NCBI GenBank assembly: GCA_038065125.1
Contig: JBBTRP010000060.1
Location: 10,848-48,105 of the forward strand
From: Patescibacteria group bacterium
GTDB taxonomy: Bacteria > Patescibacteriota > Patescibacteriia > JACQRZ01
Direction of reading: 5' to 3'
Length of the DNA: 37,258 bases
How positions within the stretch are numbered: the first letter of the stretch is position 1; every line of letters starts with the position of its first letter. The notes under the pieces are model-generated. The model did not search any database, was not told the origin of the DNA, and worked only from the letters and a program-made list of their open reading frames with translations. Shown here one piece after another: positions 14,101 to 20,288 of this stretch. The position numbers were made by a program, and so were the translations under genes.

Positions 14101-15168
14101 ACGCAACTCACCATGAGAACCTTCCATACTGGCGGTGTCGCGGGCGTTGACATCACACAAGGCTTGCCGCGCGTCGAAGAGCTTTTTGAAGGGCGCGCGC
14201 CCAAGAACCGGGCCGTGATTGCCGAAGTCGCAGGTCGCGTGTCCGTGACGGAAAAACAGAGAACAACCGCGACTGGTGATGGCAAGGAGGTCGCAAAGAC
14301 CGCGCCGAACCAGAAGATTGTCGCAATTCATTATTCAGACACGGAAGACGAACTCTATAAGTTCTCGACCCGCAAGAAGGAGGACGACACTGAGGAAGGC
14401 ACTGACGAGATCATCGAAGAGAAAAAAGCAGCGCCGAAAAAGAAAAAAACGAAACTCGAAATTCGCGTGGTCGAAGGCGCGAATGTTGCCACAGGAGACG
14501 TACTCTTCGTGACCACTTCCGGGATCGAGGTGGCCGCACGGCGCCCCGGGGTCGTGACGCAAGTGGGAAAGACGGGCCTCAAAATATCCGTCGTGAGCGA
14601 GAGTATCCGCGAGTCCATCGTTCCCTCCAATACGTATGTGCTGGTCAAAGACGGGGATCTGGTGGGTGTCGGCGATCAACTGACCGAAGGCAACCTCGAC
14701 CTTCAGACGCTCTACCGCTACAAAGGGCGCAACCGGACACAGCATTACATTATCAACGAGATTCAGCACATCTATTTTTCTCAAGGTCAAAAGCTCAACG
14801 ACAAGCACATCGAGGTGATTGTGCGCCAAATGTTCTCGCGTATTGCGGTGACCGATGCGGGCGAGACCGATCTTCTGTCCGGAGAGATCGTCGAGAGAAC
14901 CGAGTTTTTGGAATCAAATGCAAAGGCGCGAAAGACAGAGCTCAAGGAGGCAAAAGGCGATGAGCTCCTCATGGGAATCACGAAGGCGTCGCTCTCCACC
15001 CGTAGCTGGTTGTCTGCAGCATCCTTCCAAGAGACGGCGCGCGTCCTCATCAATGCCGCCGTCACCGGCAAGGCAGACCACCTCGAAGGACTCAAAGAAA
15101 ATGTCATCATCGGCCGACTGATTCCGGTTGGAACCGGCTACCAGGTCCGCAAACGGCGAGAGCGATAA
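11140..15168 (+). CDS. rpoC: DNA-directed RNA polymerase subunit beta'
   Basis: Zn finger ECYCGKYK...CDKC, catalytic NADFDGD, bridge helix [43 protein letters not shown]. Confidence 0.99.
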
Positions 15169-15185
15169 GCGCTTCGACTCGTGCA

Positions 15186-15989
15186 ATGAATACTCAGCAC
15201 CCTCAAATACTTACCGCTGCCATCGAGTTCGCGCGGGCAGTCGCTCCGCTTTTTGTGGAGCGATTTGGTAATGCAGGCAGCGTTGAACGCAAAGAGGGAA
15301 ATGCGCGTAATCTGGTCAGCGAAACAGATCAGGAGATCGAGCGGCGTTTGCGCGCGATGATCTCAGAGCGATTTGCAGACCACGCGATCGTCGGAGAAGA
15401 GGGGATAAGCGACTGGACCGAGGCGCAGAAGAAAGAATTCGTCTGGATCCTCGATCCCATCGACGGCACCACCAATTATATTCAAGGCATTCCATATTGC
15501 TGTATCTCCATCGGTGTCTTTCGTCAGGGAGCGCCTCACGTCGGCGTCATTTATAATCCGATTAGTGACACGCTCTACGCAAGCGAGACAGGAGCGGGGG
15601 CGACAAAGAATGGTATACCGATTCATACGTCCGACACCCGAGAGCTGCCCGCGGCATTCGGGTCGGTCGGATGGGATCGCGACCTTGCTGCCGGGCAAGA
15701 ACTCATCTCCTCGCTCATTTCTCAGGCGCGAAAGCTGCGGGTGTTCGGATCGCACGCGCTTAGTATGTGTGCGGTTGCGGACGGGTCGTGTGATTTTTTC
15801 TTCAATGCAGGGACCGGGGCTCATCTGTGGGATGTCGCGGCGGCACAGTGTATCGTGTCAGAGGCGGGTGGGTTGACCACCGATCGGTCGGGTGCGTCTC
15901 TCACGGCATTTGAAAACATCAATCGGATCGTCTGTGCTTCGACCACGGATTTGCACGGACAACTTCTCAATATCGCTCAGAGTTTTTAA
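15186..15989 (+). CDS. Inositol monophosphatase family protein (SuhB-like)
   Basis: VGEEG, WILDPIDGTTNY, WDVAAA...EAGG metal-binding motifs. Confidence 0.92.
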   Translation: MNTQHPQILTAAIEFARAVAPLFVERFGNAGSVERKEGNARNLVSETDQEIERRLRAMISERFADHAIVGEEGISDWTEAQKKEFVWILDPIDGTTNYIQGIPYCCISIGVFRQGAPHVGVIYNPISDTLYASETGAGATKNGIPIHTSDTRELPAAFGSVGWDRDLAAGQELISSLISQARKLRVFGSHALSMCAVADGSCDFFFNAGTGAHLWDVAAAQCIVSEAGGLTTDRSGASLTAFENINRIVCASTTDLHGQLLNIAQSF

Positions 15990-16061: not shown

Positions 16062-17015
16062 TTAGGCGACTATAATTTCGCGCATCAGCACGCGGAATTT
16101 TACCACCCGTTCCAGGTATTCTTCCACGCTTGGCGACTCCACCATGCGGGTTAGTTCGGAGACAGAGCCCAGAATCGCTTTGCGATCATCTCTCCCGCCA
16201 ATGACGCGGACCGCAAACTCGCGCAGCGCGTCCGTGTGCATTGGGCCGATCAGATCGAGTGCGCGGAGTCGTGCATACACGTTTGCCGTCTCAAGGTCCC
16301 GGTCGGGGAGATGGGAGAATCGGGACAGCATTTCTGAACGCAACATCTCCGGAAGACACCGATCTAGGGCGGCCAAAAAGACCGACTCCAGAGCGGGGTC
16401 GAGGAGCATGAGGTCAAGCCGCAAGCGCCGCAGGATCCCGAACGCCGTGAATTTGCGCGCCTCCTCGCACGCAAAGATGATCGAGTCCGCGGGGTTGGGG
16501 TAGTGCAGGCTCGTCTGCCCGTCGAACTTGACGTACGACGGGAAGATGTCCACATAGCGCACCCCATGTCCGTTCAGGGAAAAGTTGGAAAGGAACGCGT
16601 CGATGCCGACCTCGTGCGTGCCTCGCACAAGAAGGCCGGTGATAGCGGTAACGATCCCTTCGACGACCTCGCGAGCCCGATCCGGCTGATCTCTGATGAT
16701 CTTTGCGCAGTCCGTCCCTTCATGTGAGATGTGGTGGACCGGAAAGCCGTCCTCACGGACCTCCATGTCGTACTGCTCCGGAAGGGGAACGTTGTATCCC
16801 CGTAGCCGTTCAATGAAGGCGGCCGCGATGGCGTTGATGTGTTCCGCTTCGCGCGCGCGCGCATCGGGTTCGAGTGCCTCAAGGATTCCCGGGCAGGGAA
16901 CTTTGAGAATGTAGGGTCCTTTTCCGTTTCGGACGGAAAGGACCAGGCCATATTTGGCGGAATATCTTTCGACCACTTCCACCCCATACGATTGGCACAG
17001 GGCCTTCTCGTCCAC
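16062..17015 (-). CDS. Hypothetical protein with protein-kinase-like (PKL) fold signatures
   Basis: 317 aa; GTG start with perfect SD TAAGGAGG 7 nt upstream. YILK38VP (beta3 Lys), VPLPE, GID139AFLSN144F (DxxxxN catalytic loop), YVD156IFP (DFG equivalent). Confidence 0.7.
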   Translation of the reverse strand: MDEKALCQSYGVEVVERYSAKYGLVLSVRNGKGPYILKVPCPGILEALEPDARAREAEHINAIAAAFIERLRGYNVPLPEQYDMEVREDGFPVHHISHEGTDCAKIIRDQPDRAREVVEGIVTAITGLLVRGTHEVGIDAFLSNFSLNGHGVRYVDIFPSYVKFDGQTSLHYPNPADSIIFACEEARKFTAFGILRRLRLDLMLLDPALESVFLAALDRCLPEMLRSEMLSRFSHLPDRDLETANVYARLRALDLIGPMHTDALREFAVRVIGGRDDRKAILGSVSELTRMVESPSVEEYLERVVKFRVLMREIIVA

Positions 17016-17114
17016 GGTACTTCCTCCTTAACACGTCAAGGTACTCACTCGGAGAATCACGATGATTCCGAGTCGGTTCTTTCCTTTCTTAGCGGTCTCG
17101 CCAAAAAGAAAGAA

Positions 17115-17924
17115 TCAACTCGAAAGATCGCTTACATCCTCCCACGTTCCATCAAATGCATAACCGGACAGGCGACCTTCTTCGGCAAGGCGGGGAAATA
17201 CGTCACGTTCAAGTTTGAGCGCGTCGGGAGCTATGTATCGAAAGAGTGCAGGTTCCATGACGTACACGCCGGCGTTCACCAGATGAGAGAAGGTTGTCGG
17301 GTTTTCTGGCTTCTCTTCAAAGCTCGCAATCCGTGATCCCTGCAACCTCGCAAGACCCCACATGGAGACGTGCTCGACAGAGGTGAGCGTCATGGTCGCG
17401 ATCGATCCGCGCTGTTGTTTATGAAATTCCAACAGATCCAAAATATTGAGGTCTGTCAACACGTCTCCGTAGAGAACGATAAAGCTTCCCGATCCCATCG
17501 CAGCTTGTGCTGCACGAAGTGGTTGCGCGGTGCCGGGGGCAAGTCCGTCCTGGGAGAGATAGACGAGTGAGACTCCAAATTTTTCACCCGTTCCAAAAAA
17601 ACTTTTGATGCGTTCGGAGCCCGTGCCGCAGGAGATCACGATATCATCAAGACCCCGCTCGTGAAGACCAGTGATGGTATGCTCCAAAAGAGGCTTTCCG
17701 AAAATCGGAAGCATTGCTTTTGGAATGACCTTTCCAGAGTCAGGATCCTTTACGCCTTTTCCGCCGGCAAGAATCAAAACCTTTACCGGATGATGGTGTG
17801 TCGCTTTTGAGAGGAGCGATTCGATCGCGTGGGAGCGATTGCGGATTTTTTGCCCGTCAATGAGGGAGTCGATCTTTTCCAAAAGATCTTTGCGCAGCGT
17901 GATGGTAAGACGTTCGCGAGTCAT
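17115..17924 (-). CDS. Ribbon-helix-helix (CopG/NikR-like) domain fused to a sugar-phosphate nucleotidyltransferase-like domain
   Basis: N-terminus MTRERLTITLRKDLLEKIDSLI...NRSHAIESLL (RHH pattern), then ILAGGKG, PKAML, YGDVL, FEEKP, VNAGVY, WED. Start taken at ATG 17924; alternative 17942. Confidence 0.88.
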   Translation of the reverse strand: MTRERLTITLRKDLLEKIDSLIDGQKIRNRSHAIESLLSKATHHHPVKVLILAGGKGVKDPDSGKVIPKAMLPIFGKPLLEHTITGLHERGLDDIVISCGTGSERIKSFFGTGEKFGVSLVYLSQDGLAPGTAQPLRAAQAAMGSGSFIVLYGDVLTDLNILDLLEFHKQQRGSIATMTLTSVEHVSMWGLARLQGSRIASFEEKPENPTTFSHLVNAGVYVMEPALFRYIAPDALKLERDVFPRLAEEGRLSGYAFDGTWEDVSDLSS

Positions 17925-17935
17925 GGGGGAGGTGA

Positions 17936-17975
17936 ATATCATATATTATCATACATCATCATACAAATCGTGCAA
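17936..17975 (-). promoter_or_regulatory. Promoter of the RHH fusion overlapped by three TATGAT direct repeats at 10-bp period (putative operator)
   Basis: Plus strand ATCATA at 17938, 17948, 17958; minus strand TTGCAC-16 nt-TATGAT. Confidence 0.55.
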
Positions 17976-18022
17976 ACCTTATTTTTCCGATGGTTTTGAG
18001 GGGATATGCACAGGATGACGTG

Positions 18023-18051
18023 TTGTACTGCCGCATAAAGAGGCGTATACT
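18023..18051 (+). promoter_or_regulatory. Sigma70 promoter of ftsK
   Basis: TTGTAC-17 nt-TATACT. Confidence 0.6.
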
Positions 18052-18065
18052 TTACTATACACACC

Positions 18066-20288
18066 ATGCCATCCATCAAACGAGAACGGCGAGCCACGAG
18101 GCGAAGCGAATCAAAGACAACCGGACCGCGAGCGCGATCAGCACAATCGCTCTCCCTACCCCGCAGAGAACTCGGGGTCGTTTTTCTTTTTACCTGCGCG
18201 ATCCTCTCCCTACTCGCGCTCTTGGGGCTCGCGGGGAGTGCCGGCGTGTGGATTGCGGCAATCCTTGCGATCCTCTTTGGGCAGCTCAAAATAATTTTCC
18301 CCTTCGTCCTTGCTGCATTCGCTACGCTTTTGTTGAAAAAGCGCGATATCTCATTCCACTGGCTCCAGGCAATCGGATGTTTTTTTCTCCTCTTCTCGGT
18401 GGCTGCATTTTTTCATCTCCAGTATCCGCCGGGCGAGTCGTTCCGGCAGAGCATCGCGGGGCAGGGCGGGGGACTCCTCGGATTTTTCTTGTCCGACGCA
18501 CTGCAGAACGTGGTTGGATTTTGGGGTGCGCTGTTCGTGCTCATCGCAGTTGCTGTTAGCGCATTTCTCTTGGTAGTGAATACATCGGCCGCAGCATTTT
18601 TTCAATGGATAAAAACCCCGTTCTCGGCCGTACTCCAGGGGCTTTCACGCGTGAGACTTCCGGAACGAGCGCGGCAGGAAGCCGCACCTGACACGCAGAC
18701 GCTTCTGGACGAGGAGGCAGACACCGCGTCACGCAGCGTCTCTGGGCATCGAGAGCCCAGCTTCTCGCGCAAGGAGCGCAATGACGAGGAGCGGGGCTCT
18801 GAGGAGAAGATTGCAGACACGATCGAAGTCCTCCAGCCCAAAAAGCAACAGAAAAGAGTTCAAGTGCCTCTCTCGCTTCTGAATAGCTCACGTCAGCAGC
18901 CGACGAGCGGAGACATTCGGACGAATAGCCTCATCATCCACAAGACTTTGGAGAACTTTGGTATTCCGGTCGAGATGGGGGAGGTCAATGTTGGCCCGAC
19001 TGTGACGCAGTTCACCCTCAAGCCCGCTGAAGGCATTAAGCTGGCCTCCATCACGGCTCTTCACAACGATCTCGCGCTCGCTCTCGCCGCTCACCCCATT
19101 CGCATCGAAGCCCCCATTCCGGGCCGTGCGCTCGTCGGGATCGAGGTCCCCAATCAGAAAACCGCCCTGGTTTCCTTGCGAGAAATTTTGGAGTCCGAGG
19201 AGTTTCGCAACCGCAAGAATAACCTTACCGTCTCGCTGGGCAAGGACGTGTCCGGCAAGGCGCGCATCGCGTCTCTTGCCGCCATGCCGCATCTCTTGAT
19301 CGCGGGGTCAACGGGGTCAGGAAAGACCGTCTGCATCAATACCCTCATCATGAGCCTCTTGTTTGAGAATGGCCCCGAGGATCTCCGGTTTATCATGGTC
19401 GACCCCAAGCGTGTCGAACTGCCCTGCTACAACGACATCCCGCATCTCCTCACCCCGGTGATCACCGACGTGAAAAAAGCTCTCAACGCGTTGCGGTGGA
19501 CCATTCACGAGATGGAGCGGCGGTTTGATGTTCTCTCGCGGGCTACGAAGCGTGACATCGCGTCATACAACAAAGCGCACGCCGAAACGCGCCTTCCCTA
19601 TATCGTCATCATCATCGACGAACTTGCCGACATTATGGTGACGGCGGGCGTCGAGGCGGAGAGTCTTATTATTCGCCTGGCGCAGATGGCGCGCGCGGTC
19701 GGCATTCATTTAGTGCTTGCAACCCAGCGCCCTTCGGTTGATGTGATCACGGGCCTGATCAAGGCAAACATCACCTCGCGCATCGCGTTTGCGGTCGCGT
19801 CGCAAATGGACTCGCGAACGATCCTGGATACTTCGGGTGCAGAAAAACTCATCGGTCGCGGAGATATGTTGACCATTTCCGCCGATCTTTCAAAACCACT
19901 GCGTATTCAGGGAGCGTATGTGTCTGACGAGGAGATCGACCGGGTAACGCGATTTCTTCGCGAGAGCGGCGAGCCTTCGTATCAGGACGGCGTCACGGTA
20001 AAACAGGCTGTGCCAACGATTGATGGTGCGCTCTCGGGAGACGACGATGACGACGATGAGCTCCTCGAGCCCGCCAAAGAGGTGATCCTGCAGGCGGGCA
20101 AAGCGTCCGCATCGCTTCTCCAGCGCCGATTGCGCGTGGGCTACGCGCGCGCCGCGCGTCTTCTTGATCTTTTGGAAGCGCAAGGATTTATCGGCCCCGG
20201 CGACGGCGCAAAACCCCGCGAGATCCTGGGAAACGACACTATCGAGGATACTGATCCAGAACTCGAAGAACCGAGGGGGAGTTTTTAG
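18066..20288 (+). CDS. ftsK: DNA translocase FtsK/SpoIIIE
   Basis: N-terminal TM segments, RIEAPIPG, Walker A GSTGSGKT, IIIDELAD, LATQRPS, gamma domain SASLLQRRLRVGYARAARL. Confidence 0.97.
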   Translation: MPSIKRERRATRRSESKTTGPRARSAQSLSLPRRELGVVFLFTCAILSLLALLGLAGSAGVWIAAILAILFGQLKIIFPFVLAAFATLLLKKRDISFHWLQAIGCFFLLFSVAAFFHLQYPPGESFRQSIAGQGGGLLGFFLSDALQNVVGFWGALFVLIAVAVSAFLLVVNTSAAAFFQWIKTPFSAVLQGLSRVRLPERARQEAAPDTQTLLDEEADTASRSVSGHREPSFSRKERNDEERGSEEKIADTIEVLQPKKQQKRVQVPLSLLNSSRQQPTSGDIRTNSLIIHKTLENFGIPVEMGEVNVGPTVTQFTLKPAEGIKLASITALHNDLALALAAHPIRIEAPIPGRALVGIEVPNQKTALVSLREILESEEFRNRKNNLTVSLGKDVSGKARIASLAAMPHLLIAGSTGSGKTVCINTLIMSLLFENGPEDLRFIMVDPKRVELPCYNDIPHLLTPVITDVKKALNALRWTIHEMERRFDVLSRATKRDIASYNKAHAETRLPYIVIIIDELADIMVTAGVEAESLIIRLAQMARAVGIHLVLATQRPSVDVITGLIKANITSRIAFAVASQMDSRTILDTSGAEKLIGRGDMLTISADLSKPLRIQGAYVSDEEIDRVTRFLRESGEPSYQDGVTVKQAVPTIDGALSGDDDDDDELLEPAKEVILQAGKASASLLQRRLRVGYARAARLLDLLEAQGFIGPGDGAKPREILGNDTIEDTDPELEEPRGSF

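Follow-up and report, generated by a model that had tools for sequence, protein, structure and literature searches.

A predicted autoregulated transcription factor joining a NikR-like ribbon-helix-helix head to a degenerate nucleotidyltransferase fold in Patescibacteria

Our analyses of a 37,258-nt stretch of contig JBBTRP010000060.1 from a Patescibacteria group bacterium (the window, in whose numbering all features are placed) revealed a minus-strand gene whose product joins a ribbon-helix-helix (RHH) module to a sugar-1-phosphate nucleotidyltransferase (NTase) fold, and which lies behind three promoter repeats of a kind conserved upstream of its orthologs. The data are best explained if the fusion protein is an autoregulated, one-component transcriptional repressor with an enzyme-derived sensor, which we consider probable from the sequence comparisons presented here. 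The features that bear on this reading are as follows.

17115..17924, minus strand: RHH–NTase fusion gene, 269 residues from the ATG at 17924 (open reading frame list and homolog N termini)
17808..17912, minus strand: RHH module, NikR-like, with an R-x-T-x-T strand; residues 5 to 39 (Pfam RHH_1, NikR match, AlphaFold2 helices)
17121..17783, minus strand: NTase-fold domain (sugar-1-phosphate nucleotidyltransferase), the proposed effector-binding domain; residues 48 to 268 (Pfam NTP_transferase)
17718..17765, minus strand: degenerate signature loop G54–K69, GGKGVKDPDSGKVIPK, in place of GGxGTRLxPLTxxxPK
17938..17964, minus strand: putative operator of three direct (G/A)TATGAT half-sites at 10-bp spacing (from sequence; half-sites conserved upstream of orthologs)
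17948..17976, minus strand: predicted sigma-70-like promoter, TTTGCA, 17-nt spacer and TATGAT (promoter scan), the −10 hexamer being the middle half-site

The open reading frame as listed spans 17115..17942 on the minus strand (275 residues), and its in-frame upstream ATG at 17942 would add MIFTSP to the protein. Because the homologs all begin M-x-R-E-R-L-T-I-T-L, the ATG at 17924 is the likely start. The initial annotation had described an RHH joined to an NTP_transferase domain, and Pfam gave a match to each part: RHH_1 matched residues 5 to 39 (E value 6e-4; 20.1 bits, just below the 20.5-bit cutoff) and NTP_transferase matched residues 48 to 268 (103 bits; cutoff 21.2 bits), with no further domain found in the Pfam scan of the protein. 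Among all solved chains, the best match to residues 1 to 50 was Escherichia coli NikR (1q5v; E value 4e-4), a protein in which the R, T and T residues of the strand read bases. The AlphaFold2 model of the head has an extended N terminus followed by helices at residues 12 to 21 and 30 to 42 (predicted local distance difference test, pLDDT, 67 to 84 for the block), that is, the strand-helix-helix topology of an RHH, with the strand itself unassigned in the monomer model. In an alignment of 30 sequences, D23, G24, R28-N-R-S-H32 and E35 of the RHH were invariant, and R5, T7, I8, T9 and L10 were conserved at 90% or more. Modeling of a two-copy homodimer gave scores of 0.00 and 0.02, which count neither for nor against dimerization. 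A word-indexed search returned 2772 proteins at E ≤ 0.001; 119 of the best 120 cover at least 95% of the query, with lengths of 266 to 321 residues, and the source names of these 120 are Patescibacteria/Doudnabacteria "NDP-sugar pyrophosphorylase" or "nucleotidyltransferase."

The NTase domain carries the motifs LILAGG, PK, YGD, EKP and NAGVY, has no β-helix domain and ends in WEDVSDLSS, in agreement with the initial annotation, which had noted the retained motifs and the end after WED. Its nearest structures were 8x7s, 3hl3 and GDP-mannose pyrophosphorylase (GMPP)/VTC1, with template modeling (TM) scores of about 0.7 to 0.8; Foldseek returned 8x7s at an E value of 1e-20, and the TM scores to 3hl3 were 0.74 to 0.81. 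The structural neighbors are active enzymes, namely tlr0611 (8x7s; a UTP-Glc-1-P uridylyltransferase), the Bacillus anthracis protein of 3hl3/4ecm, plant and human GMPPs, MurU and RmlA. Invariant NTase residues in the 30-sequence alignment were P68, K69, Q125, G131, Y152-G-D154, E204-K205, N217-A-G219, Y221, W261 and D263, and W189-G190 was also highly conserved. The active-site set outside the signature loop (the PK Lys K69, D154, E204-K205 and D263) was thus intact in all 30; we assigned the roles of PK Lys, two metal-binding Asp and EKP by alignment and from the RmlA/GlmU literature.

The signature loop itself is degenerate. It reads G54-G-K-G-V-K-D-P-D-S-G-K-V-I-P-K69, keeping the canonical length with Thr changed to Val and Arg to Lys, and the G-x-G-T/S-R signature with its catalytic Arg is absent from the protein, which has GKGVK. 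The earlier statement that the canonical loop is replaced therefore stands, but the conserved Arg, which it called missing, is in fact substituted by Lys. For comparison with relatives, one genome per species was scanned, giving 147 loci with a relative of the gene, the best 80 of which were analyzed: L001 to L060 match from residue 1 to 4 onward and so include the RHH, and L061 to L080 match only the NTase part. Across 61 fused proteins, the Arg position is K in 18, Y in 13, R in 7, N in 6, D in 5, F in 5, S in 3, Q in 2, T in 1 and a gap in 1, and the Thr position is V in 41, I in 6, Q in 5, L in 2, A in 2, T in 2, M in 1, D in 1 and a gap in 1. No frame could be read in two of the 20 unfused loci (L076 and L080), and the Arg is kept in all of the remaining 18. 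The systematic loss of Arg in the RHH-fused forms that the initial annotation had anticipated (R in 7/61 fused vs. 18/18 readable unfused proteins) was thus borne out. The loop is altogether absent from L054 and L059, and the homolog P0120 has a 35-residue insert inside it.

The promoter repeats were as initially described: TATGAT stands on the minus strand at 17963–17958, 17953–17948 and 17943–17938, three times over the promoter with a spacing of exactly 10 bp. Allowing up to two mismatches, the triple pattern had a single occurrence in the window and none in 100 dinucleotide-preserving shuffles, and a genome scan found the triple to be unique in the 1.04-Mb genome, which has 423 single TATGAT sites vs. 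about 428 expected from base composition. Because the middle repeat is the predicted −10 hexamer, the spacer would contain the first repeat, and the third would overlap the expected start. The upstream ATG at 17942 falls within this third repeat, six bases past the predicted −10; from this position, the mRNA may be leaderless from ATG 17942, or it may have an 18-nt leader without a Shine-Dalgarno sequence. No Shine-Dalgarno sequence was found before ATG 17924 (at 17925–17942), which is preceded instead by CACCTCCCCC; this sequence resembles the 3′ end of 16S rRNA, not its complement. In one metatranscriptome run, 0.12 of the sampled words were present, and its contigs cover 17783–18018 and 18032–18200 at a depth of about 3; such contigs cannot show a transcript start, DNA carry-over is possible, and the run was not used as evidence.

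Conservation of the repeats upstream of orthologs, which the initial annotation had also raised, was evident. Pairs of TATGA[TCA] 8 to 14 bp apart were present in 41 of 61 upstream 140-nt regions vs. 30 of 3023 control windows from the same loci, an enrichment of about 40-fold. Short repeated half-sites near the promoter, as would be expected of an RHH protein, were found under the strict pattern within 600 nt upstream in 49 of 54 bacterial loci, overlapping predicted promoter elements, vs. a background of one cluster in 280,199 nt downstream of starts. The half-site consensus from 111 sites is G(78) TATGA T(87) A(85); 24 regions contain 10-bp direct repeats and 18 contain the palindrome GTATGATAnTATCATAC. 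In two loci (L040 and L042), the repeats come after a TTGAC-17-TATAAT promoter that is distinct from them, and in five relatives' genomes well-formed double sites occur only within the regulator's own cluster. Given these separate promoters, the palindromes and the confinement to the regulator cluster, the repeats are not just −10 boxes. The order TTGACA, half-site, half-site recurs in relatives, as in the window promoter, and about 25 loci have a second promoter 1.5 to 2.7 kb upstream of the form TTGACA-N7-GTATGATAnnGTATGATAnTATCATAC. All five Nanohalarchaeota-labeled orthologs have an R-I-S-I-T strand together with a different upstream palindrome, GTAATACAAAGTATTAC, a covariation as expected if the strand reads the site. 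A phylum-wide search was less telling: the palindromic operator TATGATANTATCATA (one mismatch) was found in 90 of 301 genomes of the phylum, where its reversed control also matches often, and a hand count gave 17 of 37 regulator-bearing vs. 73 of 264 other genomes. We did not use this weak enrichment as evidence, since the pattern is too common in AT-rich genomes for its presence or absence to be informative.

By record titles, fused forms occur in many Patescibacteria lineages, in Nanohalarchaeota (five loci) and in Altiarchaeota (two loci). Among 301 evenly sampled genomes of the window's phylum, 37, or about one in eight, have a single full-length copy; of those with a completeness of at least 90% and contamination of at most 5%, 31 of 254 carry one. 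A quick IQ-TREE analysis of 61 fused and 18 unfused NTase domains, rooted on the unfused and with support from the Shimodaira–Hasegawa-like approximate likelihood ratio test (SH-aLRT) only, placed the fused forms in one clade (SH-aLRT 99), save for a long-branch unfused archaeal sequence beside the Altiarchaeota pair. The Altiarchaeota-labeled members, which combine a full GRGTRMRP motif with the RHH, branch first; K dominates the early branches, Y, F, D, N and S are derived, and R reappears in three small groups. No description of this RHH–NTase fusion, or of a regulator of such a kind, was found in the full-text literature, a search whose coverage lies outside subscription journals and database annotations; a paper on archaeal fusions likewise makes no mention of it in the passages searched. 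Tentatively, and aware that the scenario may well need revision, we propose a previously undescribed transcription-factor family common to Patescibacteria-labeled bacteria and DPANN-type archaea. It would have begun as the fusion of a NikR-type RHH with an NDP-sugar pyrophosphorylase that was still active (a "trigger enzyme" state that can still be seen in the Altiarchaeota-labeled members); the enzyme would then have decayed stepwise (R to K, then Y/F/D/N) to a pure sugar-phosphate/NDP-sugar sensor, which would now act as the local master switch for the breakdown of sugars (gap, pgk, pfkB, a kinase) in organisms relying on an external sugar supply.

Neighboring genes were called in 57 of the 60 fused loci (ORF, open reading frame, matching failed for L007, L055 and L056). 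By Pfam, the next same-strand downstream gene is glyceraldehyde-3-phosphate dehydrogenase (GAPDH) in 22 of these loci, and GAPDH lies within two genes downstream in 28; phosphoglycerate kinase (PGK) and then GAPDH follow in six loci, two of them archaeal, and a PfkB kinase is the next downstream gene in five. At the second position we found phosphofructokinase (PFK) in three loci, enolase in two, and class II aldolase, pyruvate kinase and ROK kinase in one each. Overall, a glycolytic or gluconeogenic gene is present within two genes downstream in 42 loci and in none of the other 15, and an inositol-monophosphatase (IMPase)-family gene is at the first or second position in 24. Upstream, many loci carry a stand-alone NTP_transf_3 gene and a class I/II aminotransferase, and single loci carry PGM/PMM, a G6PD–6PGD fusion or a TrmB regulator. 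In these relatives, small-genome groundwater bacteria and some tiny archaea, the regulator gene stands ahead of sugar-breakdown genes. The initial annotation had instead suggested a link to envelope precursor pools, with the divergent ftsK as context. We reject this reading, as the conserved neighbors are central carbohydrate genes of glycolysis and gluconeogenesis (GAPDH, PGK, PfkB, PFK, IMPase family), and ftsK beside the gene is particular to this genome, other loci having other upstream neighbors. Control of gap in this genome was likewise considered and rejected: gap-pgk-eno lie on another contig, with no operator there.

The window keeps the conserved frame of regulator, a variable gene X and a convergent IMPase gene. 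Its two downstream genes are as follows.

16062..17015, minus strand: protein-kinase-like-fold gene, 317 residues, same strand as and downstream of the regulator, with its own strong AAGGAGG Shine-Dalgarno sequence
15186..15989, plus strand: IMPase-family gene (Pfam Inositol_P, E value 4.7e-60), convergent and not behind the operator

The kinase-fold gene, which takes the slot held elsewhere by GAPDH or a PfkB sugar kinase, is probably the operon partner of the regulator. A Pfam scan of its product gave no family above threshold, and comparison of its sequence with solved structures gave nothing meaningful (best E value 0.42). A word-indexed homolog search returned one protein, and a profile search 367 representatives, with K38, D139, N144 and D156 conserved at 90% or more. 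Its AlphaFold2 model (pLDDT 96.8) matches kinase folds only, at TM scores of 0.3 to 0.47 in Foldseek; in VIA-align, it matched Bud32 (Z 14.4; rmsd, root mean square deviation, 3.9 over 190 residues), YihE (Z 12.2), and APH, MtnK and choline kinase (about 10 to 12). Distant homologs occupy the same slot at L030, L032 and L040, and PFK follows that slot in L035 and L040. Between the regulator stop and the kinase-fold gene, at 17050–17072, lies a small perfect palindrome, GAATCA-CGA-TGATTC, within a longer imperfect inverted repeat; it is not terminator-like, because no T-run follows on the minus strand. The IMPase-family gene begins 18 bp past the rpoC stop on the same strand (15168–15186), so the two genes are probably cotranscribed here; the convergent arrangement of this gene and the regulator cluster is shared by 24 of the 57 related loci.

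Several further elements were observed in relatives. An NTP_transf_3/IspD-like nucleotidyltransferase of about 248 residues lies 2 to 3 kb upstream of the regulator in L011, L014, L016, L019, L020, L026, L027, L039 and others, and this stand-alone gene often adjoins HAD hydrolases; we speculate that it encodes an active enzyme and that the regulator senses the product or substrate of that enzyme. A conserved leader lies between a TTGACA/GTATGATA promoter-operator and the class I/II aminotransferase, 0 to 300 nt after the second operator and 1.5 to 2.7 kb upstream of the regulator, in L005, L008, L009, L014, L016, L019, L021, L026, L033 and L036. It starts with AGG(A/C)AG, which resembles a Shine-Dalgarno sequence, and a small open reading frame of the type M-W-E-P-K..K-I-F-x-P-P-S-A-F, which may encode a proline-rich leader peptide. 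In L015, L016, L020 and L038 (also L033 and L039, where the repeats are of the ATCATTTTAAC type), the 5′ leaders are long and contain several CTACAG and then several CTGTAG copies; in the first four, about 100 nt separate the palindromic operator from the regulator ATG, and the repeats could form a long hairpin or a second set of binding sites. When 13 related loci were compared with Rfam for the conserved leaders, rRNA was the only match, and the aminotransferase leader had no family at the gathering threshold.

These observations suggest how the fusion protein may work. A NikR-type RHH would pair with that of a second copy, and the resulting two-stranded sheet (R-x-T-x-T) would enter the major groove of each (G)TATGAT half-site. 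Three half-sites at 10-bp spacing would lie on one face of the DNA and would extend from the spacer across the −10 hexamer to the predicted transcription start, so that occupancy would block RNA polymerase and autoregulate a probable two-gene operon of regulator and kinase-fold gene. The NTase fold, which keeps the base-, sugar- and metal-binding residues and has lost the G-x-G-T-R phosphate loop, would no longer turn substrate over efficiently; it may instead bind a sugar-1-phosphate or NDP-sugar and thereby alter DNA affinity. In relatives, the same protein and operator would control local carbohydrate cluster promoters (GAPDH, PGK, PfkB kinase, aminotransferase). The initial proposal of an autoregulated one-component factor with an enzyme fold as ligand sensor is thus still the best reading, given the systematic Arg loss and the conserved repeats, but its sensing and its loss of catalysis are points that we only infer.

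Several results weigh against this proposal. RHH_1 reached E ≤ 0.01 in only 12 of 30 aligned homologs, and the score of the window protein itself is below the Pfam cutoff. The strict TATGA pattern is missing from 5 of 54 bacterial and all seven archaeal loci. In this genome, gap-pgk-eno are on contig C72, downstream of rpsB-tsf and without an operator, and the glycolytic role apparent in relatives may not extend to it. Weak catalysis is possible, because Lys is present at the Arg position and both metal-binding Asp and the PK Lys are kept. Because there is no Shine-Dalgarno sequence at the regulator start, the start codon and the mRNA 5′ end are uncertain. Finally, DNA binding and ligand sensing by the fusion protein are predictions.

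Some proteins, such as BirA, PutA and NadR, combine catalysis with repression, and the fusion protein could likewise be a bifunctional trigger enzyme, that is, an active NDP-sugar pyrophosphorylase that also represses its operon via the RHH. In line with this, hardly any active-site position outside the loop varies (K69, D154, E204-K205 and D263 are invariant), Lys takes the place of Arg in this protein and in 18 of 61 members (7 keep Arg), and the Altiarchaeota-labeled members combine GRGTRMRP with an RHH. However, Thr is replaced (Val, Ile, others) in 59 of the 61 and the Arg position is Y, F, D, N, S, Q or T in 35; the loop also varies between members, two of which lack it and one of which has an insert within it. 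The genome already has five other NTP_transferase genes, one of which scores 251.6 bits, and no NCBIfam enzyme model came near its cutoff for the fusion protein (Arch_glmU, the best, 113.7 vs. 292.1 bits; ManC-type, 110.4 vs. 440; MurU, 92 vs. 250). The published work on this loop, as excerpted from PMC4643126, bears on both sides: GalU T20M/R21H lowers Vmax about 500- to 1000-fold and GlmU R18A lowers activity about 6000-fold, a cost of 500- to 6000-fold for equivalent changes in characterized enzymes, but GalF, naturally without T-R and with a Vmax about 1000-fold weaker than that of monomeric GalU, retains residual activity, and restoring T-R in it gave a 10-fold gain. According to an excerpt of PMC11228364, GMPPA is a noncatalytic paralog that binds GDP-mannose. 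Taking the structures, the equivalog scores, the loop-mutant literature and the five other NTP_transferase genes together, we favor a weakly catalytic or noncatalytic domain that would bind ligand, and we regard the trigger enzyme as unlikely, if far from negligible.

Two other readings deny the fusion protein a part at the repeats. In one of these, the protein is an enzyme whose RHH-like tail serves only oligomerization or protein contacts, and the TATGAT repeats are tandem −10-like elements without a regulator: TATGAT is one base from TATAAT, the middle copy is the predicted −10, and the RHH_1 score is subthreshold. But the roughly 40-fold enrichment of paired sites upstream of orthologs, with near-absence elsewhere, their occurrence as palindromes and downstream of separate promoters, and a half-site equal to that of NikR with the same recognition strand make this highly improbable. 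Alternatively, the repeats could be the operator of another regulator, a true NikR or other RHH protein, with the fusion gene merely a target, and GTATGA is indeed the known NikR half-site. No NikR_C domain was found, however, in five genomes (this one, which is 94% complete, and four relatives), which argues that a true NikR is not the binder; moreover, 49 of 54 bacterial loci have the sites upstream of the fusion gene itself, and in five relatives' genomes they lie nowhere but in its cluster. We therefore give this alternative, too, very little credence and retain the fusion protein as the probable repressor of its own operon.

Very few transcription factors of small-genome candidate-phyla bacteria have a predicted operator, targets and sensor, and the RHH–NTase family offers all three: a 7- to 8-bp half-site conserved across many lineages, a putative local regulon of central carbohydrate genes and a candidate sensor whose enzyme ancestry can be followed at the level of single residues. 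If the proposal is true, the family would be a clear natural case of an enzyme turned ligand sensor, and the DNA-reading head of NikR would have been reused for a nonmetal signal.

Among known systems, E. coli NikR (PDB 1q5v, 2hzv) is closest in its head and operator. Its R-V-T-I-T-L strand corresponds to R-L-T-I-T-L in the fusion protein, the helix start N-R-S-x-A-I is common to both, and the layout of an RHH head with a C-terminal ligand-binding domain is the same, ligand binding by the fusion protein being proposed. As excerpted from PMC7055735, NikR is a tetramer with two RHH domains at its ends and its operator is GTATGA-N16-TCATAC. The half-site is thus the same as in the repeats of the fusion gene, but the NikR half-sites are N16 apart, whereas those of the fusion gene are adjacent, in 10-bp direct repeats or a tight palindrome. 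NikR also differs in having an ACT-like NikR_C domain where the fusion protein has an NTase fold, and in its context of nickel uptake rather than carbohydrate genes. GalF and GMPPA share the NTase fold (the structural matches include GMPPA/GMPPB chains) and have similarly lost the T-R of G-x-G-T-R while retaining the sugar and nucleotide pocket; they regulate a partner enzyme by protein–protein contact, whereas the fusion has a predicted DNA-binding domain and a conserved operator. PutA, BirA and NadR pair a metabolic enzyme fold with a DNA-binding domain, an RHH in the case of PutA as well, and autoregulate related genes. They remain active enzymes, however, and belong to other enzyme families, whereas the signature catalytic loop of the fusion family is degenerate in most members. 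The CggR/SorC-type proteins are repressors of central glycolytic genes, and in relatives of the window the regulator gene is, as in those systems, directly upstream of gap and pgk with a putative operator in its own promoter; their domains are nevertheless unrelated, as the fusion has no SorC or DeoR-type sugar-binding domain by Pfam, and the downstream gene in the window is the kinase-fold gene, not gap.

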